64,000 bases of DNA from Myxococcales bacterium (GTDB lineage Bacteria > Myxococcota_A > Polyangia > Polyangiales > DASUME01): the NCBI GenBank assembly GCA_047601445.1, contig JASGJH010000001.1:7488001-7552000 (forward strand), read 5' to 3'. The notes below the pieces were generated by a model. That model was not told the origin of the DNA. It did not search any database and was given only the letters and a program-made list of their open reading frames with translations. Of this stretch, positions 4,107 to 21,853 are shown in pieces (position 1 is the first letter of the stretch; every line of letters begins with the position of its first letter). A program made the position numbers and the translations under genes.

Positions 4107-6137
4107 TCAGCCGCCGAGGGAATCGCGGACCTGACGACTCATGGCCTCCACGCCGGCGCTGCGCGGCCCCGGAGGCGACAGCTCGTCGCCTAGCTTGTCA
4201 CTGAGCGTGAGGGCGATCAGCGACTCGAGCAGATTGGCAGTGCCACCCGCTTTCCCATCCACGCCGGCGTTGCCGGTCTGCATCATGACGCGCGGAACCA
4301 CCTCGATCCCGGCGTGCTCGATGGCCTGAGCGAAGCGCCCCAGTACGTGCTCGGCCACGCGCAGCCTGGCGCCGCCATAGGCGCGCACCTGCTCCTCGAT
4401 GGCGACCGCCTCGGCCACGCCGACGCGCGCGGTGCGGTCGGCCTCCGCATGGGCGAGTCGTTGCACTTTGTGGGCTTCCGCTTCGGCATACATCCGGATC
4501 TTGTCCGCTTCGGCCTCGGCCATGGTTCGTAGCTGAGCGGCTTGCTGCATCACGCGCTGAGTCTCGGCCTTGCCCTGGTTGGTTTGGATGGCGATCGAGA
4601 GCTCGGACTCCGTGATCTGACGCTGTTGGGCCGCGCGTGCCTCGGCTTCGCGGAACTCCCGTTCCTTCACGGCGGCGCGTTCCTTGAGCGCGTAGGTCGA
4701 CACCTGCTCTTCGGCGATCTGTCGGTTACGCAGCTGGTCGAGGATCGACACGATCTGGTCGTTCGAACCCGCCGCCGAGCGAGGCGTGCCGATGAGCACC
4801 TCCTCGAGCTCCAGATTGTAGTGCGAGAACTTGGCCCGCATCTCCGCGCCCGCCTGCTCCTGGATCTGCGAGCGATCCTGCAGCAGTTGGATCAACGTGC
4901 GGTTCTGCGCGATGTTCTTGAAGTAGGCCGAGACCATGGGGTCCAGGGTCTGCTCGACCAGGCGCTTCACATCGCCGAAGCGCTGCACCACCAGCGGCGC
5001 CTTGCGGTAGTCGATGTGGACCACCACCGACAGCGGCAGCGAAGGCTCGAACGCATCCTTGGTGATCAACGACACCTCGGCGAGGTTCTCGTCGTAGCGA
5101 TGCGCGCCGACCTCGCTGCGGTTCCACTTGAGAATGAAGTTGGTCGTGGGCACCGAGACGACGTGGCCCGCATAGGTATTGAAGGCGTATTTGCCCGGCA
5201 ACAAGGGGTCAGCCCAGACGCCGCGTTCGCCCACTTGCACGAGCTCACCGTGCTTGTAGTCGCTGCCTGAGACGTCGGTTCCGCGCGAGCCCGTGTACGA
5301 GACCACCACGCCCACGGTGCCCACCTCGATGGTGGTCTTGGGGACCAGCTCGACGGTGGCGAACAAGCGATTCACGAAGTAGGTGCCTTCGACCAGCACT
5401 TGCAACTGTCGACCGCGCTTGCCCCCGGCCGCCAGGAAGCGCTCGGGATCCTGAAAGCTGTCGTGATAGATCTCCGGATAGGCAGGGTCGTTGCCCACGA
5501 TGGGCGCGATGATCTCGCTGGCGCACAGGGCGTTGCCGTCGTGCACCGTCACGATGCCGAGTGCGTCGGCGGAGCCTTCCACGACCACCGGGCGGAAGCC
5601 GCCGCGCTCCCGAATCAGCGAAGCCATCTGCTCGAACACCTTCGTGTTGTCGCCGGCCTGAGGCAGGTAGTACGTCTTCTCTTCAGTGATCACGACGAAC
5701 TGCGCCAAGTTGATCGCGTAAGTGCCCTCGCGCAGCAGGGTGCGTTGCGGGCCGCGCTGACCACCGTGCTCGAAGAACCGCGGCACGTCCTGCACGTCCG
5801 CGAGGCTCATGGCGCGCGCCAGGGTTTGGCCCGGCAGGAGCGGGCGACCGTCGCGGGCGAACAGATAGCCGAGGCGCCCCTGAGCGATCGTCACGAGGGA
5901 AACACGATGCACCGCGTACTGCAGGATCCACCGGTAGTGCAGGCCACCACGCAGCACGTCCGGTTGAAAGCCCGCCTGCCCTGACAGAGCGATCACTCCC
6001 GAGGCGACGGATCCTTGCAAGCTGAAGCGCTTCTCCACGATGCCGATGTGATCGATCGGGATATAGCGAACGCCTGCCAAGAACCCAATCGTCAGCCAAG
6101 CGGCCGCGATCTCCAGTCCCAAGACGAACCAATCCAT
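4107..6137 (-). CDS. SPFH/band 7 (flotillin-like) membrane protein
   Basis: N-terminal TM helix, repeated GxRGxQ..L.(E/P)G.Y modules, SPFH region and AEAEA coiled coil; AGGAGG RBS before ATG at 6137. Confidence 0.88.
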   Translation of the reverse strand: MDWFVLGLEIAAAWLTIGFLAGVRYIPIDHIGIVEKRFSLQGSVASGVIALSGQAGFQPDVLRGGLHYRWILQYAVHRVSLVTIAQGRLGYLFARDGRPLLPGQTLARAMSLADVQDVPRFFEHGGQRGPQRTLLREGTYAINLAQFVVITEEKTYYLPQAGDNTKVFEQMASLIRERGGFRPVVVEGSADALGIVTVHDGNALCASEIIAPIVGNDPAYPEIYHDSFQDPERFLAAGGKRGRQLQVLVEGTYFVNRLFATVELVPKTTIEVGTVGVVVSYTGSRGTDVSGSDYKHGELVQVGERGVWADPLLPGKYAFNTYAGHVVSVPTTNFILKWNRSEVGAHRYDENLAEVSLITKDAFEPSLPLSVVVHIDYRKAPLVVQRFGDVKRLVEQTLDPMVSAYFKNIAQNRTLIQLLQDRSQIQEQAGAEMRAKFSHYNLELEEVLIGTPRSAAGSNDQIVSILDQLRNRQIAEEQVSTYALKERAAVKEREFREAEARAAQQRQITESELSIAIQTNQGKAETQRVMQQAAQLRTMAEAEADKIRMYAEAEAHKVQRLAHAEADRTARVGVAEAVAIEEQVRAYGGARLRVAEHVLGRFAQAIEHAGIEVVPRVMMQTGNAGVDGKAGGTANLLESLIALTLSDKLGDELSPPGPRSAGVEAMSRQVRDSLGG

Positions 6138-6876
6138 TGTGTCCTCCTGCTTGCCCGGCCCATGCTGGAACCGGCCGCGCGAACCGGCGTTCTCGGAGAC
6201 CGACAGCCGGCCCGCCACACGCTGTGGCGTGGTGGCGAGAATCAACCGGCGTTCGAGCCGTGAGTTTCGTCGCGTGTGGAGGCTCTGGAAGCAGAGCGCG
6301 CGCGTGGCGGGAGCTCACCTCGGTCCGTGTGCGGGTTGACACCCTCGACGAGACCGACGAAAAAACCGCAAGGTCGCGCTACATGGCGATTACCGTGGTC
6401 CCAGTTTCGAGCCCGCGCAAGTCCGTCGCGTGACGATCCGCTCAACTAAGCGGAACTGCTCGGAGTGCAACGACGTTCGAGTCGGTTTGCATAGCGCCGA
6501 TCAGGACAAACGACGAGGATCACCACATTTGGCACGCGTCGAGCTGGCCTGATGGTTTGTGGCGGATGGTGACGTCCTAACGAACGCGTCCTCTCGGGAG
6601 AAGCGCTGAGGCGGGTCGACCACCACGTGAGAAGTCGGTGTCGTGGGGTGTGCTGGACGCGCATGTGGGCTCAACGCTCCACCGCGTGAGCGACTGTGCG
6701 GGACTCCGCGGCCAGGCCATCCCGCGTCATATTCGGCCGTATCCGCGCGTTTAGTGTTCGTCAAAGCTTCTCAGTTCAATTGTGCTCATGGGAAACTTGC
6801 CGAGTTCTTGAGCGCACCGCTCTCATAGACCTGGCGTACGGCTCGGGCGGAGCGCGCTTCCTTGTGGGGGAAACCG

Positions 6877-9800
6877 ATGAGCGTGAAGAAGCGCACCGCG
6901 GCGCAGGCTGCGGCGGGTGGGGTGTCACTGAAGGGTGCGGCGTTTGGCTGGGCCCTGTTGCTTTCAGCGGCGAGCGGGTGCGGAGATGCGGAGCCCGCGA
7001 ACGACGCGACCTCGGCGCCCAACGTAGGCAGTGCGGTCCTGGCAGCCTCGGGTGCTGGAGAGGCCTGCGGGAACACGAAGGACGACGACCTCGACGGCCT
7101 CGTCGACTGTGTGGACCCGGATTGTGCCGCTGACGCGGCGTGCGGCCCCGCCATGGAGTGCCGCACCTTCTTCTGGCAAATCCAGAGCGCGACCTCGGCG
7201 ATCCGTCAGATCGTCACGACGCCCGCGAGCAACGCCTTCACGTCGAGCACCGTGGCCACCGTGGGGATCGGCACCAACGCGGCCGGCTACAACCCGCGGG
7301 ACGGCTACTACTACGCCATCGGCACGGGCGGCACCACTCAGCGACACCTGCTCAAGATCGACTCCACGGGCGCCTATACGGACCTTGGCGCGGTGGCGGT
7401 CCTCGTCACCGATGGTGTGAGCCCGATCGCAGGCGACTGCGACGATCGCGGCAACCTCTACGTGAAAGACAATGCGGGAAACGCGGTCTACAAGATCTCG
7501 CTTAGCTCCCCGTACACCACCACCAAGTACAGCCTGACCAGCGGCTTTGCCGGCGCCGACATCGTCTACGACCGCGACCTGCAGCGCTTCTACGGTGTGG
7601 ATGACGACACTCTCTACGCCTGGGACGCGGGCGCGGCTGCTCCGACGTCCAAGAGCATCACGGGCGCCACGGTCGACTCGGCCACCCACGCGGCGGTCTG
7701 GACCGATGGCGACGGCTTCGTTTACTCCCTGGAGAGCCAGGCGACCGGCGACCTGCGGCGCATCGATCCGTCCACTGGTGTCGCGTCCAAGCAGGGCACC
7801 TGGAGTGGCACCACGCCCACCGACGGTGCGGGCTGCAGCTACGTGCTCCCTCCGTTCGAGATCTGCGGCAATGGCAAGGATGACGACGGGGACGGCAACT
7901 CCGACGAGGCCGTCTGCATCACGCTGCGCGACACGGACGGCGATGGCGTGTTCAACGTGGTCGATCTCGACGATGACAATGACGGCATTCCGGACGTCCT
8001 GGAGCCCGGTGACAACGACGGCGACGGCGTGACGGATCGCCTCGACCTCGACAGCGACAACGATGGCATCGACGACATCGTCGAGGCGGGCCACGCCGGC
8101 GCCGACGCGAACGGGAACGGCATGCTCGACGGGGCACCGGCGGCCTTTGGCACCAACGGCCTGCTGGACAGCCTGGAGACAGCGCCCGACGCGGCCGTGC
8201 TCGCGTACACGATCCGCGACACGGATGGCGATGGCATCCGCGATGCGGCCGAGCTCGATAGCGATGGAGACGGTCTGTCGGACTTGAAGGAAGCCGGCTA
8301 TGCGGCTGCCACCTACGACGCCAACAACGACTCCAAGGCCGACGGCACGGACACGGATGCGGACGGTATCCGGTCCACGGTGGACGGTGCGCCAGCGGTC
8401 TACGGCGATGCTGGTGCGACCACGCTGCCAGACTCCGACTCCGACGGAAAGCCGGACTATCGCGACGTCGATTCGGACGGGGATGGCGTGTGTGACGGCG
8501 CGAGCGCCAACGCGGCGGCGAGCTGCGTCGCGGGGCCCGACTCGAACCCCACGTCGAACACGGTGTGCTCCGACACGGACGGCGACAGCTGCAACGACTG
8601 CTCGGCTGGTCACTACAACCCGAGCAACGACGGACCGGACAGCGACGGCGACGGCATGTGCAACGCCGGCGACGCTTGCGTCAACGACCCGGCCAAGAGC
8701 GCGGTGGGTGCCTGCGGCTGCGGCGTGCCCGATACGGACACGGACGGCGACACCGTGGCGGACTGCAAGGACAACTGCGTGAACGTGAAGAACGTCACGC
8801 AGGTCAACGTGGATGGTGACGCTTACGGAGCGGCCTGTGATTGCAACGACGTGAACGCCGCCGTGAATCCGGGCGCGACCGAGACTTGCAACGGCCTCGA
8901 CGACAACTGCAACGGCAGCACCGACGAGGGCGTGAAGAGCACCTTCTACAGGGATGCCGATAGCGACGGTTTCGGCTCCAGCACGACCACCCAGGCCTGC
9001 AGTGCGCCTGCCGGCTACGTGGCGAGCAACACCGACTGCGACGACACGCGCAGCAGCGTGCACCCGGGTGCGACCGAGGTCTGCAACGGGCTCGATGACA
9101 ACTGCGTCGGCGGCATCGACGAGGGCGTGAAGAGCACCTTCTACGCGGACGCCGATAGTGATGGCTATGGCGCTGCCAGCGCGGCGACCCTGGCCTGCAC
9201 GGCGCCAGCTGGCTACGTGGTGAACAAGACCGACTGCGACGATGTGCGCGCCAGCGTGCATCCGGGCGCAACCGAGGTCTGCAACGGTCTCGACGACAAC
9301 TGCAACGGCAGCACCGACGAGGGCGTGAAGAGCACCTTCTATGCAGACACGGACAGCGATGGCCTCGGCGACGCAGCCTCGACGCTGCAGGCCTGCAGTG
9401 CCCCTGCCGGCTACACCACCAGCCACGGGCCCGACAACTGCCCCGCGGTGGCCAACCCGCAGCAAGAGAACCTGGATGGGGACACCCTGGGCGACGCTTG
9501 CGATCCCGATGACGACAACGACGGGACCCCGGACGGCAGCGACAACTGCCCCCGTCTGGCCAACGACCAGACCAACACGGACGGGGACGCTCAGGGAGAC
9601 GCCTGCGACCCCGACGATGACAACGACGGCATCTGCGACACCGCAACCGCCGTGGCCAACGTGTGTACGAGCGGTCCGGACAGTGCGCCGACCAACTCGC
9701 ACCAGTGCGCCGACGCCGACCATGACAGCTGCGATGATTGCGCTCTCGGCAAGGCCAACACCAAGAACGACGGTGTGGACAGCGACGCGGATGGCATCTG

Positions 9801-12800
9801 CGACAAGGGCGAGGACACCGACCAGGACGGCGTGACGGACGGGCAAGACCTCGACGACGACAACGACGGCGTGCCCGATAAGCTCGAGAACACGCTCGGC
9901 GTGAGCCCGGACGGAGACGCCGACAACGACGGCGTGCCCAACTACCTGGACGCCGATGATCAGGGCAATGGCACGGCCTCCGACTGTGTCGATGCCAACA
10001 GTGACAAGCGTTGTGACAAGCCTGCCAAGGCCTTCGACTTCGATCGCGACGGGGTGCCGAATCACCTGGATCTCGACTCGGACGACGACGGCATCGCAGA
10101 TTCTGTTCGAAGCCGGCCTGATCAGCCTGGACGCCAATGGCGACGCCATGGTGGACGGAGCAGTGGGGGCCAACGGTTTGGCCGATGCGGCCGAGACCGC
10201 CGTGGACAGCGGGGTCTTTGCCTTCCAGCTGCTCGACACGGATGGCGACGGTAAGCGCGACATCGTCGACCTGGACAGCGACGGGGACGGGGTCTTCGAC
10301 CTGCTCGAGGTCGATGCGCTCGTGCCCTTCGACGCCAACCACGACGGCGTACTCGACGACGCCACCGATGCGGACGGCGACGGCATCCATGCGAGCGCCG
10401 ACAAGGACGACAAGTTCGGCTGGCCCAAGGCCGACCCGCGCGACACCGACCACGATGGCGATGGAATCCCGCGCGCCTACGATCCGGAGGACGACGGTCC
10501 CGACGCCGGCGACTCCGATCAGGATGGCAAGGACGACGCGACCGAGTGCGCGAGCGGTTGGCCCTGCGCCGACGCCGACAAGGACGGAACGCCCGATTAC
10601 ATGGGCTCCGATCCCGACCACGATGGCGTGAACTCGGACGACGATCTGGACGACGACAACGACGGCATTCTGGATAGCGTCGAGGACAGCTACCCGGACG
10701 CCGACGATGACGGCATCCCGAACCGACTCGATCTGGACTCCGACGATGACGGCATCTCCGATGCCGACGAAGCCCGCCTCGGCAGCCTCGACGCGGACCA
10801 CGATGGACGCGTGGATGGCCCGGTGGGGACGGACGGTGTGCCCGACGCTGCGCAGGAAGGCGGTGTCGACGGCGGAACCGTGCCGGCTCCCATCAACTCC
10901 GACTCGGACGAGAAGCCGGACTTCGTCGATGCGGACAGCGATGACGACGGTGCGAGCGATGCGATCGAAGCAGGCGACGGCGACCCGGCCACGCCCGCGC
11001 GCGACAGTGACGGCGACAAGGTGCCGGACTACCGCGACACGGACGACGACGGCGACGGACTCCCGAGCGACAGCGAAGGTGCGCCCGGTCAAGACAGTGA
11101 TGGTGACGGTAAGCCCGACTACCTGGACCTGGACGACGACGGCGACGGCATCCCCACGGCCAAGGAGCGCGCGGACGAGGCGGAGCTGGGTGGCGACGTG
11201 GACCACGATGGCAAGCCGGCTTATCTCGACGACGACTCGGATGGTGACGGCGTGCCCGACGTGACCGAGGGCGGCGAGAGCGACGCCAACGAGAACGGCG
11301 TGCCCGACTACCTCGATGCCGAGATGAAGATGCTCGACTCCGACGCGGACGGCATCTCGGACGACCAGGAGTGCGCGGCAGAGCCCTGCCCCGACAGCGA
11401 TGGCGACGGCATCCCCGACGTCGACGACGATGACGACGACAACGACGGGATTCCCACCGCCGACGAGGGCCCGAGTCGCGACAGCGACGGGGATGGCAAG
11501 CCCGACTATCTCGACCCCGACGACGACAACGACGGCATCCCCACCAGGGACGAACGCCCGAATGGCCATGACGTCGACACCGATGGCGACGGTGTGCCCG
11601 ACCACCTCGATCCCGACGACGATGGCGATGGCATCCCCACCAGCGATGAGCCCACGGACGAAGACGGGGACGGCATTCCGGATCGCCTGCAGCCGCCGGC
11701 CAAGCCTCACCTCCAGGGCGGTGCGCTGTGCGCGGTGCAAAACGCAGGGCAGGGCGGCAGCGGTGGTTCGCTGATGCTGCTCGGCTTGGCGCTGGCCGGC
11801 GTGCTCGGTGCGCGCCGGAGAAGGCACGGGCCGGACGCGCGGCGGTCGCTGCGCACGAAGACCGCTCGGGCCGCCAAAGTGCTCGCGGGTGCGCTCGGAC
11901 TGACCTTCGGGATGTCGATGGCGGCCCACGCACAGGTGGCGCTCGACCAGTTCAAGCCTGCTCCGCTGGCCCGTGACGGCTTCGCGCTGAGCCGGCCCGA
12001 CGTGCTGCGCAAGGGCGAATGGAACCTGATGGCGCTGGTCGACTACGCCAACGATCCGCTGGTCCTTCACTGGACGCGTCCGAAGCACGAGACCGTGGTG
12101 GTGAGCGATCAGCTCGTGGTGCACGTGTCGGCAGCCTTTGCCCTCGGCAACCGCTTCACGCTGTTCATGGGCTTGCCCGTGAACGCGATGATGGAAGGCA
12201 AGCAAGCGGGCTCCTATGCCGCCGCTCCCGAAGGCGCTGGCATCGGTGATGCGTTCATCGGCGGTCGCTTGCGGCTCGCCGGGAACCCGGAGAGTCGTGC
12301 CGCGTTGAGCGCGGAGTTCATCGCGCGCGCACCCACCGCCGAACTCGCCAATGGCAAGCAGGTGTACTCGGGCGACAAGATCGGCAGCTACGAGCCCGCC
12401 TTGATCGGAGAGGTCCGTTTCGGTCGCTTCGACATGCGGCTGCGCGTGGGGGGACGCTTTCGCGAGCAGATCCGTGTGGGTGACCTCGTGCTCGGGCAAG
12501 AGCTCGTGTACGGCGCCGGTGCGCGCCTGCGCCTGACGCGCGCCCTCTATGCCAACCTCGAGGTCTACGGTGCGGCCAACTTCGGGAACTTCGGCGACCC
12601 GGCGCACATGCCGCTCGAGCTGCTCGCAGGCCCGAAATATCAGGCACGAAATTGGGTGATCGGCGCGGCCGCAGGGCCTGGCTTGGTCGCCGGCTATGGA
12701 TCGCCGGACGTGCGCGTGGTGGGCATGATCGCCTACGCGCCTCAGGCGAAGCCGAAACCCGTGGTGCCGCCCGCTCCCAAGGACACCGACGGCGATGGTC

Positions 12801-13585
12801 TCCTGGATCCGGATGACCGTTGTCCGCTCGATCCCGAAGACAAGGACGACTTCGAAGATCAAGACGGTTGTCCGGACCTCGACGACGATCAGGACGGTGT
12901 GCTCGACACGAGCGACGCCTGTCGCCTCGATCCCGAAGACCGCGACGGCTTCGAAGACGAGAACGGCTGTCCCGACCCGGACAACGATCAGGACGGCTTC
13001 CTCGACGTGTCCGACCGCTGCCCGCTGGAGCCCGAGGACAAGGACGGCTTCGAAGATAGCGACGGCTGCCCCGAACCCGACAACGACAAGGACGGCGTGC
13101 TCGACGTGAACGACGCCTGTCCGCTCGAACCCGGCACGGTGGAGGAGAAGGGCTGCCCCAAGCAGGTCCGCCTCGATCTCGAGAGCGGTGAGCTCAGGAT
13201 CCTCAACCGCGTCGAGTTCGCCACCAACAAGGACGTGATCCTCTCGCAGAGCGAGCCGCTCCTGAGTGAAGTCCAGGCCACGCTCGCGGCCAACCCGCAG
13301 CTCACGAAGATCCGCGTGGAAGGCCATACGGACAACGTCGGCAGCGATTGTAAGAACCTCGACCTCTCCGAGCGCCGCGCCCGCAGCGTGGCCCGCTGGC
13401 TCGTCCAGCACGGCATCGAGGCCACCCGCCTCGAGTCGTGGGGCTGCGGCGAGACCCGCCCGCTCGGCACCAACGCTAGCAACGACGGTCGCCAGAAGAA
13501 CCGGCGCGTGGAGTTCCACCTCGGCGATCCCTCGCCCGAGGACGCGGAGGAGCTCAAGGGCTGCGTGCAGATTCCGGTGGAGTGA
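6877..13585 (+). CDS. Giant surface protein (~2,235 aa after removing one base at 10101-10102): lipobox, beta-propeller-like domain, TSP3/Ca-binding and MopE-like Cys repeats, internal MYXO-CTERM, second signal peptide, TraB-like beta-barrel, TSP3 repeats, OmpA C-terminal domain
   Basis: ORFs 6862-10254 and 9956-13585 join as [20 protein letters not shown], matching the internal repeat [21 protein letters not shown]-terminal [18 protein letters not shown]...NRRVEF is an OmpA peptidoglycan-binding motif. Confidence 0.85.
8836..9420 (+). repeat. Three intragenic 195-198 bp Cys-rich repeats (MopE-related/putative metal-binding type)
   Basis: DCxD....V(N/H)[14 protein letters not shown].G..[16 protein letters not shown] unit occurs three times (ATE at about 8875, 9070 and 9268) with near-identical DNA. 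Confidence 0.85.
12782..13160 (+). repeat. Thrombospondin type-3-like repeats (~33 aa) of the TraB-like module
   Basis: DxDxDG.LD..D.CPL(D/E)PED(K/R)DGFED.DGCP(D/E) repeated about 3.5 times. Confidence 0.85.
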
Positions 13586-14014: not shown

Positions 14015-14443
14015 GTGAATGTCGTGACAGCTTACCAACGCCCTCCAATCGCAGTCCTCCTGGTGGACGATTCGCTCACCGTGCTCGCTCTCGAGCGCCT
14101 GATGCTCCGTGACGAGAACGTGGAGATCCTCACCGCTACCACGGGTCGACAGGCGCTCGACGTCGCCATGCGCCTCCGGCCAGGCCTGATCTTGCTCGAT
14201 ATCGTGATGCCCGAGATGGACGGCATCGAGTGCTGTCGCAGGCTCAAGTCGAACCCGCTCACTCAGCACATCCCCATCATCATGGTGACGACCAAGGGCA
14301 ACCAGACCATGGTGGATGCCGCCTTCAAGGCCCGCTGTGACGACTTCGTGACGAAGCCCATCGATCGCCTCGACTTCCTACAGAAGCTGCGCCGCTGGAT
14401 GCCCCGACCGTCGCGCGCGCCCGAGGGACAGTCGCACCCATGA
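14015..14443 (+). CDS. Single-domain response regulator (CheY-like)
   Basis: LLVDDS...LILLDIVMPEMDG...IIMVT...FVTKP receiver motifs. Confidence 0.9.
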   Translation: MNVVTAYQRPPIAVLLVDDSLTVLALERLMLRDENVEILTATTGRQALDVAMRLRPGLILLDIVMPEMDGIECCRRLKSNPLTQHIPIIMVTTKGNQTMVDAAFKARCDDFVTKPIDRLDFLQKLRRWMPRPSRAPEGQSHP

Positions 14444-15027
14444 CGCCCGATCGTACGGCCATGCTCAAGCTCGAGAACGCCCGGCTCTCGAAGCGTCTGA
14501 GGGAGGTGCAGGCGGAGCTCGCGCACGTACGCCGAGAGAGTGATCGGTGCATCCAACACCTCACGCGAGTCTACGTGGCCGCAGAGAGCCTGCAGCTTTC
14601 GCTGGAGCTGGAGGAAGTCCTGCGCTGCCTCAAGGAAATCGTGATCAACCTGATCGGCTCCGAGACCTTTGGCATCTACGACACGGGAGCCAAGGGACAG
14701 GCGCTCCGGCTGCTGGCGCACGAAGGGCTGGAGAGTCCGAGCGCGGTGCGCAGGGAAGGGGACGTCGCGCGCGCCCTCGACCTGGGTCAGCCCGTGATCG
14801 CGGAGGAGCGAGGGCTGACGTCGGGGGAGCCACTCGTGAGCATCCCGCTGCGCTTTCGCGCGTGCGAGCTGGGGGCGATCCTGATCTATCGGCTGGTCGA
14901 TCACAAACCCGGTCTCGACGACTTCGATCGTGAATTCATCGCGCTCTTCGCGGGGCAGGCTTCGCGCGCCTTGTACCTCTCGCGCCTGCAGGCGACGTGC
15001 GCGCACGAACAGGTGACATTGGCATGA
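14440..15027 (+). CDS. Stand-alone GAF-domain protein with N-terminal coiled coil
   Basis: LEEVL..LKEIVINLIG...IPL....ELGAILIYRL...FDREF..LFAGQA; ATGA overlaps with both neighbours. Confidence 0.8.
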   Translation: MTPDRTAMLKLENARLSKRLREVQAELAHVRRESDRCIQHLTRVYVAAESLQLSLELEEVLRCLKEIVINLIGSETFGIYDTGAKGQALRLLAHEGLESPSAVRREGDVARALDLGQPVIAEERGLTSGEPLVSIPLRFRACELGAILIYRLVDHKPGLDDFDREFIALFAGQASRALYLSRLQATCAHEQVTLA

Positions 15028-17195
15028 GACAGGAAGACGAACTGGCGACCATTCTGCCGGAGTTCATCGTTGAGGCCCGCGACAACCTGGCGCAGTTCGA
15101 GCGCGCGTTGCTCGAGCTGGAATCCGGGCGAGACGCGGCGTTGGCGCTGCAGACCCTGTTTCGTGCGGTGCACTCCATCAAGGGGAGCTGCGGCTTCTTC
15201 CACCTGGCCCAGATGGAAAGGCTTACGCATGCCGCGGAGAGCCTGCTCGACGACGTGCGCAGCGGCCGGCTGGGTGTTTCGGATGCGCTGGTCAACGCGC
15301 TCTTGAGCAGCGCCGACACGGTGCGTGTGCTGCTGCACCAAGTCGAGCGCGACGGGACAGAGGGGGCAATGGACGTCACGTCGCTGGTCTCGCACCTGCA
15401 GAACCTGGGTTCTCCATCGCGGGGCGCTAGCGACGGTGTGCCCACGGAGGACTCACCACGGGTGGCGCCCATGGGGGGCGAGGTAGCGGGACATGCGGGG
15501 CGGGACGGCAAGATCCGGGTCGATACCGCGCTGCTCGAGAGGCTGATGAACCTGGTGGGAGAGCTCGTGCTGGCCCGCAATCAGGTGGTGCAATCTGCCA
15601 CGGGCATCGAAGCGCACGCGCTGGCAGCGGCAGCCCAGCGTCTGAGCATCGTTACCTCCGAGCTTCAGGAGGTAGTCATGAAGACACGCATGCAGCCGAT
15701 CGAGCATGTCTTCAACCGCTTTCCGAGGCTCGCCCGCGATCTGGCCAAGGAGCTCGACAAGCGCATTCGGCTCGACATCGTGGGGCGCGAGACCGAGCTC
15801 GACAGGAACTTGCTCGAGACCATCCAGGATCCGCTCACGCACCTGGTGCGCAACGCCATCGCCCACGGCGTCGAGAGCCCCGAACAGCGCAGGCTCGCCG
15901 GGAAGTCCGCCGAGGGGACGGTGCTCCTGCGGGCGTTCCACCAGGGAGGCATGGTGAATATCGAGGTCTCCGACGACGGTGCTGGGATCGACTTCGAGGC
16001 GGTACGCGCGACGGCCATACGCAGAGGGATGGCCTCAGCCGACGTGCTCGGGCGCATGTCCGAGCAGGAGGTCGCGAAGCTCGTGTTCGCTGCCGGCTTC
16101 AGCACGCGACAGGACGTGACCAGTGTCGCAGGGCGCGGCGTCGGCATGGATGTGGTCAAGTCCAACGTCGAAGGCATCGGCGGCTCGGTCGAGCTCCACA
16201 CGGAGCGTGGGCGCGGTACGACCGTCAAGATCAAGATTCCGCTCACGCTCGCCATCATCCCGGCCTTGATCGTGTCGGCCGGCGGCGAGCGCTTTGCGAT
16301 TCCGCAGGCGAGCCTCTTCGAGGTGGTGCGGCTCGCCGACGGTGAGCAGCGTCGCATCGAGCTGGTGCAAAACTTCCCGGTCCTCCGGCTACGAGGCCGC
16401 ATCCTGCCGCTGGTCTACCTGGCGGATACCCTCGGAATGTCGCTTCCACGGGAGCCGGATGCTCCCCTCACCGTGATCGTGCTGCAAGCGGGCGCGCGCT
16501 CGTTCGGGCTCGTCGTGGAGGACATCCACGACACCGAGGAGATCGTGGTCAAGCCCCTGTGGAACCGCCTGAAGGGCCTGAATTGCTATGCAGGCGCCAC
16601 GATCATGGGGGACGGTCGCGTGGCGCTGATCCTCGAGCCGCTCGGTCTGGCGCAGCGGGTTGGCCTCTCCGCCAAGGGCACGCGCGATGACAAGCCGGTC
16701 GAGCCAGCGACGACCGCCGCAGCCATGGTGCAGACCGAGCAGGTGCTCGTGTGTCGGGCAGGAGGCGAACGGCTCGCCATCGAGCTCTCCAAGGTGGCGC
16801 GTCTCGAGCACCTGGCCGCGCGCAGCATCGAGCGCGCAGGGCGCGCGGAGGTCACGCAGTACCGTGGTACCATTCTTCCCTTGGTGCGCGTGGCGCAGAG
16901 GCTCGAGGAGCGCAGGCGGTTCTCGCGCGGGCCCGTCGCGCGGGAGGCGGGCGAAGTTGTAGATGACTCGGCGGTGCCCGTGGTGGTGCACTCGCAGGGC
17001 GAGCGGAGCATCGGCTTGGTGGTCGATGCCATTCTCGACATCGTGGACGTACACGTCGAGCTGCAGCGCTCCGGCGCTCGCCGCGGTGTGCGTGGGTCCA
17101 TGGTGATTCAGGGGCGCGTGACGGAATTTCTCGATATCGAAGCCATCGTCCGCGGTGCAGAACCGGGCTTCTATGGATCGGAAGCGAGGGCCTGA
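15024..17195 (+). CDS. cheA: Chemotaxis histidine kinase CheA with two C-terminal CheW-like domains
   Basis: Hpt FRAVHSIKG, dimerisation [17 protein letters not shown], HATPase [24 protein letters not shown], then two CheW domains; no evident P2. Confidence 0.95.
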
Positions 17196-17197
17196 CC

Positions 17198-17671
17198 GTG
17201 GCGCGACAACTGTGCACCTTTCAGATCGCAGGCCAGCTGTTCGGCGTGGACGTCGCGCATGTCCAGGAGGTTATCCAGGATCAAGCCACCACGCGAATCC
17301 CGCTCGCACCTTCGGCGGTAGCCGGCCTGATCAACCTGCGCGGACAGATCGTGCCTGTACTCGACCTACGTCATTGCCTCGCGCTGCCGCGGGCGAGCGC
17401 CGCGCTCGGCGGCGCCAACGTCGTGCTGGCGACGGAGGCGGGGCCCGTCAGTCTCCGTGTCGACGAGATCGGGGATGTGCTCCAGGTAGGCGACGACGCC
17501 TTCGAGGCTACGCCGGAGAACCTGCGGGGACCGACCCGTGCCCTGGTTCGCGGCGTGTACAAGCTCGATCGGGCCTTGCTCCTGGTGCTGTCGACCGCGG
17601 ACGTGATCGAGCTGGCGTCGAGTGCGACGCCGAGCCCGGAATCCGACACATCTTTCGCTCTCAAGAATTAG
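17198..17671 (+). CDS. cheW: Chemotaxis coupling protein CheW
   Basis: [11 protein letters not shown]...[16 protein letters not shown]. Confidence 0.95.
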
Positions 17672-17709
17672 TTCTCCCAACAGATTTCACGCGCCACCCG
17701 AGGGCAATC

Positions 17710-19833
17710 ATGGAACGAATGACGAACAAGACAGCAAAAGGCTCCAGCGAGCGCAAGCTCCGCAATGGAAGTTCGAACGGTCACGGCAAGGCAAACGGCT
17801 CGGCAGCGAGGGCCAAGACCATCGGCAATGGCACAGATAGCCAGCGCAACGGAAAGCAGACGCGCCGAGGCGCCGAAGCAGAGGCGGAGCTGAGTGCCCT
17901 GCGGCGTGCGCTCCTCGTGGTCGAGTTCGACATGGCAGGCGTGGTCACCACCGCCAACGACAACTTCCTGTACGCCACGGGTCACTCGCTGGAGGAGCTG
18001 GTCGGCCGGCATCACCGCACGATCGCCGATCCTTCCTTCGTGGCGAGCGAGCACTACGAGCCCCTATGGTCGCACCTGCGCGGGGGACAGGCCCGCGAGG
18101 GAGAGTTTCGCTACCTCGGGAAGAACGGCAGGGAGCTGTGGCTGCGGGCGAGCTATGCGCCGGTGCTGGGCGAGGCCGGAGAGGGCCCCTCGAAGGTGAT
18201 TCTCCTGGGCACCAACATCACGGAAGAGAAGCTCAAGCTGTCCTCCGAGCTCGCCGAGCTCAAGACCCGTATCGCGATCCTGGATCGAACCAGCATCGTG
18301 TCCGAGGCTGACCTGCGCGGAAACATCACCTATATCAACGATAAATTCTGCGAGATCTCCGGTTTCACGCGCGAGGAGCTCATCGGCAAGCCGCATAGCA
18401 TCGTGCGCCACCCCGATACCCCCAAGGAGACCTTCAAGGAGCTGTGGGCCACCATCGGCCGCGGCAAGATCTTTCGCAGCGTCATCAAGAACCGCAAGAA
18501 GGACGGCTCGCCCTACTATGTCGACGCGGTCATCGCGCCCGTGCTCGGAGCGGACGGCAAGCCGAAGAAGTACATCGGCGTGCGCTACGACCTCACGGAG
18601 TCCGAGGTCGAGCGCCAGAACATGCGCGGTGTGCTCAAGGCCATCGATACGGCCTACGCCTACGCGGAGTTCGACGTCACGGGCACGTTGCTCACGGCGA
18701 ACACCAACTTCCTGCGCCTGATGGGCTACGAGCGCGAGCAGGTGGTCGGCAAGCACCACCGCATGTTCGTCGAGGCGGCTTCCGCCAGCTCCGCGGAGTA
18801 CACCCAGTTGTGGGCCGGTCTGCGCGCCGGCAACCCGCAAAACGACGTGTTCCCGCACGTGGCGAGTAGCGGCCGCAAGATGTGGCTCCAGGTCTCCTAT
18901 GCACCCGTGGTGAACGAGAAAGGGGTGGTCCAGAAGATCGTCAAGCTGGCGGCGGACGTGACCGAGCGCATGCAGGCCCAGGAGCGTGAGCGCGCCAGCG
19001 CGGCCCTGCGCGGTGTGCTCACCGACGTGTCGGTGCATTCGCAGACCTTGAGCGCGTCGGCGGCTCAGCTGACGAACGTCAGTCATCAGATGGTGGCGAC
19101 CGCGGAGGAGACGGCGGCCCAGGCCACGCAGGTGTCCGCCGCGGCCGAACAGGTCAACAAGAGCACGCAGTCGGTGGCCACAGGCATCGCCGAGATGAAC
19201 GCCAGCATCCGCGAGATCGCCAGGAACACCAACGAAGCTGCCAAGGTGGCGGGAGAAGCGGTGCAGACGGCGGCGCGGACCACCGCGACGATTACCAAGC
19301 TCGGCATGTCGAGCGCCGAGATCGGCAAGGTCATCAAGGTCATCACCTCGATCGCTCAGCAGACCAACCTGCTCGCGCTGAACGCCACCATCGAGGCAGC
19401 ACGCGCGGGCGAAGCCGGCAAGGGCTTCGCGGTGGTCGCCAACGAAGTGAAGGAGCTCGCCAAGGAGACGGCTCGAGCCACCGAGGACATCGGGATCAAG
19501 ATCGGGACCATTCAGGCGGACACGGAAGAAGCGATCTCTGCGATCGGCAACATCGGGAGCACGGTCAACCGCATCAACGACATTCAGAACTCGGTCGCCG
19601 CGTCGCTCGAAGAACAGACCGCCACGGCGGCCACCATCGTGAGGAACGTGAGCGACTCTGCCCGGGGTAGCGCGCAGATCTCCGAGAACATGTCGGCGGT
19701 GGCGGACGCGGCGCGCAACACCAACGAGGGCGCGAACTCGACGCAGCAGGCAGCTGCAAGCCTGGCGCAGATGGCCTCTTCGCTACAGCAACTCGTGAGT
19801 CGCTTCAAGACGGCCGATGGCGGCACCAACTGA
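17710..19833 (+). CDS. Soluble methyl-accepting chemotaxis protein with three PAS domains
   Basis: Three PAS/PAC units, no TM segment, signalling hairpin [37 protein letters not shown]. Confidence 0.93.
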
Positions 19834-19916
19834 CACGCCGACGGTAGCCAGGCCGCCTGTGCATAGCACCACGGGCGAGCCGACGCGCGTGGCTCTCCGC
19901 TCATACAAACGATTCC

Positions 19917-21029
19917 ATGAAGCTTCGTAAGCGCATTCTGGTGGTCGATGATTCGGTCGTGGTCCGACGCGCGGTCACGACCTGGCTCGCCGCCGATCCC
20001 GAGCTCTTGGTCGCGGCAACCGCCTCGACCGGGAAGCTCGCGCTCGAGCGCCTCGAGCAGACGAATCCGGACCTCGTGCTGCTCGATCTCGAGATGCCCG
20101 AGATGGACGGCTTGGAGTCCCTGCGGCGCATCCGCGCGACCCATCCGGATCTGCCGGTGCTGGTATTTTCGGCGTCCACCGAGCGCGGTGCGCTGTTGAC
20201 CCTGGACGCGCTCTCGGCCGGTGCCAGCGACTATCTCGCCAAGCCCGCGAGCATCGGCGGGAGGGCAAGTTCCAGCGACGCCGTGCGCGCCGAACTTTTG
20301 GCCAAGATCCATGCTCTGACTACGCGGGACGAACCGAAGGACGGTCCGCGGGACGAGCCCGGCCCGCAGCCCGCCTCGCAGGCTCGCGGCTCCACGCCCG
20401 CGCGAGCTGCTTCCATCGAGGCCATCGTGATCGGGGCTTCGACGGGTGGGCCCAACGCCGTACGCGATGTGCTCGCCGCGCTGCCGTCGGAGCTCGCCGC
20501 GCCCGTGTTGGTGGTGCAACACATGCCCGCCGTGTTCACGCGCATCTTTGCGGAGCGTCTGGATGCAGAACTTCCGTTCGTGGTGCGCGAGGCGGTGGCT
20601 GGAGAGCTGCTGCAGCGGGGGCAAGTGTGGATCGCGCCCGGAGATCACCACCTGGGGCTGGTGCGAGACGAGTTCGGCGTCCGCCTCGTGCTGTCCCGGG
20701 GGCCGCTCGAGAATTCCTGCCGTCCGGCCGTGGACGTGCTGTTCCGCTCTGCCGCCACCTGCTTTGGTCGCGCGGTGCTCGGCGTGGTGCTCACCGGCAT
20801 GGGCCAGGACGGCGTGCGCGGAGCGGAGACGATCCGGGCGGCCCGGGGGCAAGTGATCGTACAAGACGAGGCGAGCAGCGTGGTGTGGAGCATGCCAGGT
20901 TCGGTGGCCAAGGCGGGGCTCGCGCACGCCGTGCTGCCGCTATCCGAGATCGGTCCGGAGATCATGCGACGCGTGGGGCGCGCCCCGGATCACGCTGTGC
21001 AGCTCGCGTCCGCACGGAGCAAGCGGTGA
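19917..21029 (+). CDS. cheB: Chemotaxis methylesterase CheB
   Basis: Receiver domain plus IGASTGGP, VQHMP, RPAVDVLF, LTGMGQDG. Confidence 0.95.
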   Translation: MKLRKRILVVDDSVVVRRAVTTWLAADPELLVAATASTGKLALERLEQTNPDLVLLDLEMPEMDGLESLRRIRATHPDLPVLVFSASTERGALLTLDALSAGASDYLAKPASIGGRASSSDAVRAELLAKIHALTTRDEPKDGPRDEPGPQPASQARGSTPARAASIEAIVIGASTGGPNAVRDVLAALPSELAAPVLVVQHMPAVFTRIFAERLDAELPFVVREAVAGELLQRGQVWIAPGDHHLGLVRDEFGVRLVLSRGPLENSCRPAVDVLFRSAATCFGRAVLGVVLTGMGQDGVRGAETIRAARGQVIVQDEASSVVWSMPGSVAKAGLAHAVLPLSEIGPEIMRRVGRAPDHAVQLASARSKR

Positions 21030-21853
21030 TGGGCTTGCGGTCCACGGAATTCGAGGTCATCCGCGGACTCGTGTACGCGGAGACGGGCATCCTGGTGGAG
21101 CCGGACAAGAGCTACCTGGTGGAGTCCCGGCTAGAGCCGCTGCTGCGAGCCAGAAAGTTGACCAGCATCGGGGAGTTGCTCGACGAGCTCACCCGCATTC
21201 CGAAGTCCGGGCTGCGACGCAGTATCGCCCAGGCGCTGGTGAACGGAGAGACCATGTTCTTCCGGGACCCAGGGTCGTTCGACATGCTGTGCACCCAGCT
21301 CTTGCCGCGGCTCCTCTCGGGGCGCGCTGCGACGCGCAGGCTGGTGATCTGGAGCGCCGCCTGCTCGACCGGTCAGGAGCCCTACAGCGTCGCCATGCTG
21401 CTCGATCGTCACTTCCCCCAGCTCGTCGACTGGAAGGTGCGGATCCTCGCCACCGACTTCTCCGAGGAGCACCTGGCCCGCGCGCGCGCCGGCCGCTACC
21501 TCCAGCACGAGATCCAGCGCGGTCTGCCGGCGTCCGAGCTGACGCGTTGGTTTCGGCGACAAGGAGAGGAGTGGGAGCTCGATCTCGCGCTGAGGCGCCG
21601 CGTGGATTTTCTGCCGCTCAACCTCGTGACGGACTTCCCGCCTGCATACCCGGTGGATTTGGTGCTCTTGCGCAACGTGATGATCTACTGGGACCACGCC
21701 ACCAAGCGCAGTGTGCTCGAGCGCATCCGCAGCGTGCTTTCGCCGGACGGGGCGCTGATCCTCGGGGCCGCGGAGACCACGCTGCAGATCGACGACGGCT
21801 TCGAGCGCAAGGAGCTCGCGGGCGCCAGCTATTTCGTGGCCAGACAGCGCTGA
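21029..21853 (+). CDS. cheR: Chemotaxis methyltransferase CheR
   Basis: ETMFFRD, IWSAACSTGQEPYS, ATDFS, RNVMIY, LGAAE; start overlaps the cheB stop. Confidence 0.95.
   Translation: MGLRSTEFEVIRGLVYAETGILVEPDKSYLVESRLEPLLRARKLTSIGELLDELTRIPKSGLRRSIAQALVNGETMFFRDPGSFDMLCTQLLPRLLSGRAATRRLVIWSAACSTGQEPYSVAMLLDRHFPQLVDWKVRILATDFSEEHLARARAGRYLQHEIQRGLPASELTRWFRRQGEEWELDLALRRRVDFLPLNLVTDFPPAYPVDLVLLRNVMIYWDHATKRSVLERIRSVLSPDGALILGAAETTLQIDDGFERKELAGASYFVARQR

Follow-up and report, generated by a model that had tools for sequence, protein, structure and literature searches.

Gene layout and a frameshift in the assembly

The subject of this analysis is a gene of a Myxococcales bacterium (GTDB lineage Bacteria; Myxococcota_A; Polyangia; Polyangiales; DASUME01) that lies at positions 6877–13585 of a 64,000-nucleotide stretch of DNA, here called the window (GenBank assembly GCA_047601445.1, contig JASGJH010000001.1, forward-strand positions 7,488,001 to 7,552,000). 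Its predicted product joins an adhesin-like region to an outer-membrane β-barrel and an OmpA-like domain through an internal MYXO-CTERM-type tag and a second signal peptide (Table 1), and it is probably a precursor of two envelope proteins. An earlier note on this DNA had described the gene as one open reading frame. As assembled, it consists of two overlapping plus-strand frames, 6877–10254 and 9956–13585, offset by a +1 shift at an AGATTCT word, and it becomes a single frame only if one base at ~10100 is discounted. The gene then encodes 2,235 residues, with the tag Cys as residue 1618 and the stop codon at 13583–13585.

Table 1. Features of the fused gene, in window coordinates
Feature	Positions	Strand	Evidence
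Start and lipoprotein-type signal peptide, lipobox Cys35	6877..6981	+	Sequence, lipobox pattern match
Tip domain DUF6923	7192..7779	+	PF21959 71.6 bits, cut-off 27
Acidic Ca-type/Cys repeat stalk, part 1 (frame 1)	7850..10097	+	PF11617 104 bits, PF02412 30.5 bits, both above cut-off
+1 frameshift at AGATTCT	10098..10104	+	Frame-switch statistics, homologue read-through
Acidic DxDGDG repeat stalk, part 2 (frame 2)	10103..11710	+	Sequence; GC content at third codon positions (GC3) 0.84; aligns to L032, L044
Internal MYXO-CTERM-type tag	11711..11824	+	GGALC (Cys codon 11729-11731), linker, helix 11771-11812, RRRR 11813-11824
Basic loop, predicted cytoplasmic, 18 residues	11825..11878	+	No ATG/GTG/TTG or stop in + frames; GC3 0.87
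Second signal peptide (predicted), h- and c-region, AHA/Q site 11932/11933	11879..11932	+	Alignments, AxA statistics
Outer-membrane β-barrel, FapF/COG4313-like fold	11933..12757	+	Structure model, Foldseek
TSP3-like acidic repeats (approximate bounds)	12773..13150	+	Sequence; later part inside TraB-model alignment
OmpA-like cell-wall-binding domain	13217..13504	+	PF00691 66.3 bits, cut-off 27.2

The shift belongs to a pattern that runs through the assembly. In a codon model applied to the whole genome, the frame switches by +1 at 40 of 267 scorable GATTCT words and 52 of 296 AGAATC words, against 129 of 26,090 GATC words, so that 15–18% of the scorable GATTCT and AGAATC sites switch frame. Three homologous loci (L031, L032 and L041) align to both window frames around ~10100 and keep a single frame throughout, as does a fourth, L044. 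Because slips are linked to the motif genome-wide and four homologues read through, the slip was judged an assembly error. The systematic +1 insertions are probably base-calling errors at a methylated motif; GATTC was not among the 15 most over-represented 5-mers in genome-wide counts. Genes split at GATTCT or AGAATC words in this assembly deserve distrust. As the earlier note had stated for GATC and GATTC, the junction is free of such words: neither these nor GAATC occur within 11711–11933, the nearest lying at 11609 and 11681.

The tip domain probably has a repeat fold of the β-propeller type. Its neighbours in a domain atlas were DUF6923 and DUF4394, with a recognition score under the tool's reliable range, and a single-sequence model was uninformative (predicted local distance difference test, pLDDT, 40). 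The first part of the stalk scored 55 bits against the MtsC model, far under the cut-off of 350. A lipobox pattern was found in P0002, P0037 and, probably spuriously, P0039 among 39 proteins scanned, and most fused homologues are without one. The split orthologue L044, described below, keeps the lipobox (by eye), and so does P0037 (by pattern). The window adhesin is possibly lipid-anchored twice, by the lipobox Cys near its N-terminus and by the tag Cys at the opposite end.

The part that follows the AHA/Q site comprises 550 residues. Its barrel was modelled with a pLDDT of 86 and a predicted template modelling (TM) score of 0.84, and the best Foldseek matches were FapF (5o68, E 3.4e-9, TM 0.64) and a COG4313 channel (4rl8, TM 0.66). 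The fold is alike at 10–16% identity; the window barrel differs from these channels in being followed by repeats and an OmpA domain, with no sign of polypeptide export. PF13557 matched in two homologues. The barrel and the OmpA domain of the earlier description stood. Pfam TSP_3 was not called in the C-terminal repeats, which align to the repeat/OmpA part of the TraB model; their later part lies within the stretch aligned to its positions 316–503.

The internal tag and second signal peptide across the phylum

At the junction, the stretch LQGGALC...RRRR (11711–11824) contains an invariant Cys after a Gly-rich motif, a 14-residue hydrophobic stretch and an Arg-rich tail, and continues in frame and stop-free through the loop into an 18-residue hydrophobic segment that ends in AHA/Q. 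The tag layout, the basic linker and the AxA site at 11932/11933 are therefore as first described. From 11813 to 11878 there is no start or stop codon in any plus frame. One usual property of a MYXO-CTERM tag, a C-terminal position, is absent, since 586 residues follow RRRR. The second hydrophobic segment resembles a signal peptide in two alignments: the alignment to the TraB model begins inside it, at window position 11882 and model position 2, and it also aligns with the signal peptide that stands free at the start of the barrel gene in the split orthologue. At a related locus, the NCBIfam model midcut-by-XrtH, whose name suggests that mid-protein sorting signals are known for an exosortase, had a weak match (L041:3383–3682, 13.6 bits, cut-off 45).

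These features were compared over 117 distinct barrel rows, 79 of them fused and 35 serving as an unfused control from which L015 (stop inside the barrel), P0030 (fused by eye) and P0032 were left out. The second segment has a median hydrophobicity of 2.5 in fused and 2.4 in unfused rows, and AxA is present at 66 of 79 fused junctions and 29 of 35 unfused signals, compared with 287 of 2,659 background windows. The distance from the tag Cys to the Arg cluster has a median of 27 residues (range 20–37), a figure partly set by the detector. With a median loop length of 8 residues in fused rows, the n-region of the second signal is usually formed by the Arg tail itself.

The junction recurs widely among homologues, which are not always split and whose tips vary. 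A sample of 40 related genomes (best loci and 20 further regions, mostly long frames) held 15 loci where tag, Arg cluster, second hydrophobic segment and barrel share one frame; they come from 11 other genomes, among them 5 of the 9 congeneric ones. A protein search gave 34 matches of 664–2,116 residues, 33 with the junction, and it was present in all four longer matches, one of them the L031 product. In a phylum-wide search of 150 genomes, frames of at least 900 codons were found for 29 of the 145 non-own matches listed, beyond which lay 485 weaker ones; 26 of the 29 were fused, as were 3 of 5 frames of 800–900 codons. The fused frames among the matches listed represent 22 genomes of 11 families that do not belong to the window's class. 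Recognised tips include DUF6923, LamG, DUF642/DUF4215, Ig-like, FG-GAP and AgmC_N domains, and in other homologues none was recognised. A pattern search with the window barrel gave 134 pattern matches and no confirmed relative. Annotators should be warned that a long protein labelled "OmpA family" in this phylum is in many cases probably two proteins.

Some individual homologues deserve mention. Within P0003–P0032, 29 homologues share an N-terminal region (EGSA after a type I signal) that mostly has no precomputed Pfam match besides OmpA and is a candidate for an unnamed tip family. Two fused precursor genes with near-identical barrels stand in tandem at L067 (G081:C41). The frame at L074:1–2004 has tag, second signal and barrel with just 269 residues past the site, too short for an OmpA domain. 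Fused junctions are also found at L015 (G009:C161), where the barrel is interrupted by TAG, and at L043 (G001:C220), where it is interrupted by a frame break; either decay or assembly error may account for these interruptions.

The window tip was found in one of nine congeneric genomes (G008, 45% identity), and there the gene is split. Locus L044 of this genome holds a frame of 1,503 codons, 57% identical over the first 583 columns, whose stop codon closely follows the same GGALC tag with its Arg cluster. About 105 bases downstream, a barrel-OmpA gene (61% identity) begins with a purine-rich site, an ATG and its own signal. A split congeneric orthologue suggests that the halves work separately. 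An upstream gene ending in a tag precedes 7 of the 35 unfused barrels by eye; the upstream-tag rule itself gave 10 matches, of which L005, L016 and L018 were rejected on inspection. Two of the seven pairs, both with ATGA overlaps, are in the window genome (L079, C1:6155056–6158861; L092, C1:7679600–7682500), and neither upstream protein matched an NCBIfam model.

On a FastTree phylogeny of 115 of the 117 barrels (L015 among those left out), the fused state changes at least 18 times. A single clade of fused barrels was rejected in an approximately unbiased test (p-AU 3e-64, 28 rows), a result weakened by rows chosen after the larger tree had been seen and by a simple model. On these trees the fused barrels are not one clade; since the trees are unrooted, fusion and fission are indistinguishable. 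The barrels closest to that of the window in the larger tree, L003 and P0003, are both fused.

Relation to MXAN_5598, TraA and TraB

The fused layout is real and already in print. One paragraph among the papers searched (PMC11980579, Guo, Haft and Wall 2025) describes MXAN_5598 of Myxococcus xanthus, in which an adhesin region precedes an internal MYXO-CTERM that is followed by a barrel and OmpA; the authors compare it with TraA and TraB combined and propose that its N-terminal half is processed. The window gene is, by its sequence, a further member of this layout. The passage of that paper on MXAN_5598 mentions neither a second signal peptide nor the breadth of the layout; its Table S1 colour-marks signal peptides and could include one (PMC11980579). 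No description of a second signal or of phylum-wide spread was found in the literature searched, with subscription papers and an image table beyond reach.

A pattern derived from an MXAN_5598 peptide led to a gene (L100) of Myxococcus sp. Y35 that is flanked by ftsA- and ftsZ-like genes and has the same order of tag, Arg cluster, second signal and Gln, and a barrel scoring 167 bits on our own profile. By position and peptide we call it the MXAN_5598 orthologue. It scores 404 bits on the AgmC model (NF047640, cut-off 275), and L036 scores 342; in both, AgmC_N heads a fused precursor. The window protein lacks AgmC_N, whose sole match in the genome is at C1:4841034–4842242; it lies in a minus-strand gene (C1:4839174–4842350) that ends in a MYXO-CTERM-like tag and has no barrel gene behind it. 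The window gene and MXAN_5598 thus share a large adhesin region, an internal MYXO-CTERM, a barrel and OmpA, in one frame once the +1 error is discounted. They differ in that the window protein has a lipobox, a DUF6923 tip and acidic repeats, whereas the MXAN_5598 type has AgmC_N and Ig-like repeats.

The surroundings differ as well. The MXAN_5598 orthologue sits in a division cluster, whereas the window gene lies between an SPFH-like gene on the other strand (4107–6245) and a downstream chemotaxis-like cluster (14440–21853; CheA-, methyl-accepting chemotaxis protein (MCP)/PAS-, CheB- and CheR-like), both assigned by eye from translations. No link between the fused gene and these neighbours was found, nor any flank synteny with relatives among the few loci compared. 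A promoter and terminator scan was at chance level (no promoters; three terminators, 3.1 expected).

TraA and TraB, the outer-membrane-exchange pair (PMC3325183, PMC6372800, PMC12045341), are encoded by two genes with a four-base overlap (PMC3325183) and are reported at 1:1 (PMC12045341). The order of parts is the same as in the window gene: tip, stalk and MYXO-CTERM, then signal, barrel, TSP3-type repeats and OmpA, so that all the kinds of parts found in TraB are present. TraA differs in its type I signal, PA14-like domain and TIGR04201 repeats, none of which was found at the window locus. The five PF07691 matches in the genome all lie elsewhere, as do two sub-cut-off matches to the TIGR04201 Cys-rich repeats. 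A non-PA14 tip had been predicted in the earlier note, and a DUF6923 domain indeed takes its place; PF07691 alone is a weak test, since the TraA domain is a distant PA14 homologue. The TraB model (NF033763) gave 200 bits against a cut-off of 700, which no match in the genome reaches. By these family tests the window gene is not TraA/TraB. Since its halves fail both tests, the proposed TraAB-like contact system is retained here as an architectural likeness. A role of the window gene in kin recognition or outer-membrane exchange finds no support in the family tests and is doubtful.

Predicted processing and its alternatives

It is likely, with a probability that we put at about 0.75, that signal peptidase I and the myxosortase MrtC cut the 2,235-residue precursor into two envelope proteins. 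The proposed route builds on the established biology of Sec, signal peptidase I, the β-barrel assembly machinery (BAM) and myxosortase. Sec would export the chain by its N-terminal lipoprotein signal until the MYXO-CTERM helix acts as a stop-transfer segment, leaving the Arg-rich loop in the cytoplasm. This loop would double as the n-region of the second hydrophobic segment, where export would restart, and signal peptidase I would then cut after AHA to release the 550-residue barrel-repeat-OmpA protein. The freed barrel would enter the outer membrane, with the OmpA part gripping the wall. Cys1618 would be lipidated and MrtC would cut behind it, yielding an adhesin of ~1,580 residues that may reach the surface by type II secretion, as shown or proposed for TraA, while a hairpin of ~67 residues would remain in the inner membrane.

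The out-in-out precursor proposed in the earlier note is supported by four results: the junction is conserved, an orthologue is split, usable internal starts are lacking, and the machinery is present. MrtC (NF040594) was found in the window genome at L088 (230.7 bits, cut-off 195) in a scan that covered five of six CPBP loci, and a GspD secretin scored above cut-off. Cleavage of TraA by MrtX has been shown and requires the Cys (PMC11980579); the myxosortase names follow 10.1101/2023.06.07.544157. A peptide from the N-terminal half of MXAN_5598 (residues 741–755 of 2,699) was listed in three of three vesicle and one of three membrane preparations (PMC4158809, peptide sheet), thin evidence that fits release from the inner membrane.

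Several points weigh against double cleavage. For every fused member, cleavage is a prediction. The expected match of the tag to TIGR03901 was borderline: the cut-off is 20 bits, and three choices of the stretch scanned gave 21.8, 19.6 and 15.3. An ordinary terminal tag upstream of a separate barrel gene elsewhere in the genome scored 16.4, which shows that ordinary tags of this genome can score low too. The loop and Arg cluster of the window gene span 22 residues, against a family median of 8. The second signal was called from hydrophobicity, the AxA pattern and alignment, and the 79 fused rows were called by our own tag-detection rule and checked by eye. The samples favour long frames by design and include kin that are not independent, so their counts are not true frequencies. 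The vesicle evidence is a single low-abundance peptide; no barrel-side peptide of MXAN_5598 is listed, the peptide counts of the two sheets disagree, and proteins of all predicted compartments were reported in the vesicles (PMC4158809).

Four other explanations were weighed. Were myxosortase to fail on a tag that runs into a second helix, signal peptidase I alone would free the barrel, and the N-terminal half would either remain in the inner membrane or be carried to the surface, through its N-terminal lipid or still bearing the helix. Such a single cut would agree with the borderline tag score, with the window protein's own lipobox and with the finding that some TraA is still surface-located in a myxosortase mutant (PMC11980579). 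It is nonetheless unlikely, given the near-constant spacing of Cys and Arg cluster (a regularity partly set by the detector), the terminal position of the same GGALC tag in L044 and the absence of a lipobox from most fused homologues. Alternatively, the protein may remain intact and span the envelope, with an inner-membrane hairpin, a periplasmic stalk and an outer-membrane barrel. The retention of a single frame in many lineages would suit an uncut protein, as would the purely predicted status of cleavage, but the ~30 residues between the second helix and the first strand in the barrel model appear short for crossing the periplasm, AxA is as frequent as at free signal peptides, and the orthologue is split; this arrangement is quite improbable.

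An internal start codon could instead produce the barrel, with the fusion an incidental read-through of nested genes. The window offers an in-frame GTG at 11879 and a CTG at 11849 ahead of an RTK stretch resembling an n-region, and fused barrels are scattered among unfused ones in the tree. However, the GTG has no ribosome site and would leave no basic n-region, and the upstream half would still be stop-less. Across fused junctions, Met occurs in the loop in 1 of 79; at the DNA level, start codons are present in the loop of 3 of the 44 fused loci, in no case with a ribosome site, compared with 32 of 35 unfused loci, 15 of them with a ribosome site. Internal translation starts for the barrel are thus unlikely, and nested genes as the whole explanation very improbable. 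Least credible is an assembly artefact joining two genes: the assembly does contain systematic indels, one inside this gene, and the full-length congeneric orthologue is split, but an artefact would require loss of both a stop and a start, neither of which occurs in any plus frame of 11813–11878, and the junction has no error motif, the loop has coding-like GC3 and the two nearest barrels are fused.

If the precursor is cut twice, it probably serves in adhesion at the cell surface, with a wall-anchored partner produced in equal numbers; by analogy with TraA and TraB, the two products would bind each other. To our knowledge, there are few descriptions of a bacterial precursor from which two different membrane proteases produce two envelope proteins. 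The fbcH gene of Bradyrhizobium japonicum encodes a cytochrome b/c1 precursor that is cut at an internal signal peptide into two proteins; it differs from the window gene in that its products are inner-membrane respiratory proteins, a single protease acts and no sorting tag is involved. A broader proposal, which we offer tentatively as possible rather than probable, is that the fused genes represent a general and reversible myxobacterial envelope polyprotein cassette, in which an Arg tail serves as n-region, two unrelated proteases act, and a receptor with a swappable tip is made 1:1 with a wall-anchored barrel. Many non-TraA pairs, fused or split, would then form a wide family of contact systems, in which a FapF-like barrel may dock or present the adhesin, and the adhesin described here would be lipid-anchored at both ends.

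In summary, this analysis adds the conservation of the second signal peptide, which the MXAN_5598 orthologue also carries, together with the congeneric fused/split pair and the placement of fused barrels outside a single clade. The fused and split congeneric orthologues provide a natural control, and the second signal in the MXAN_5598 orthologue makes the idea testable in M. xanthus, where a myxosortase mutant exists.

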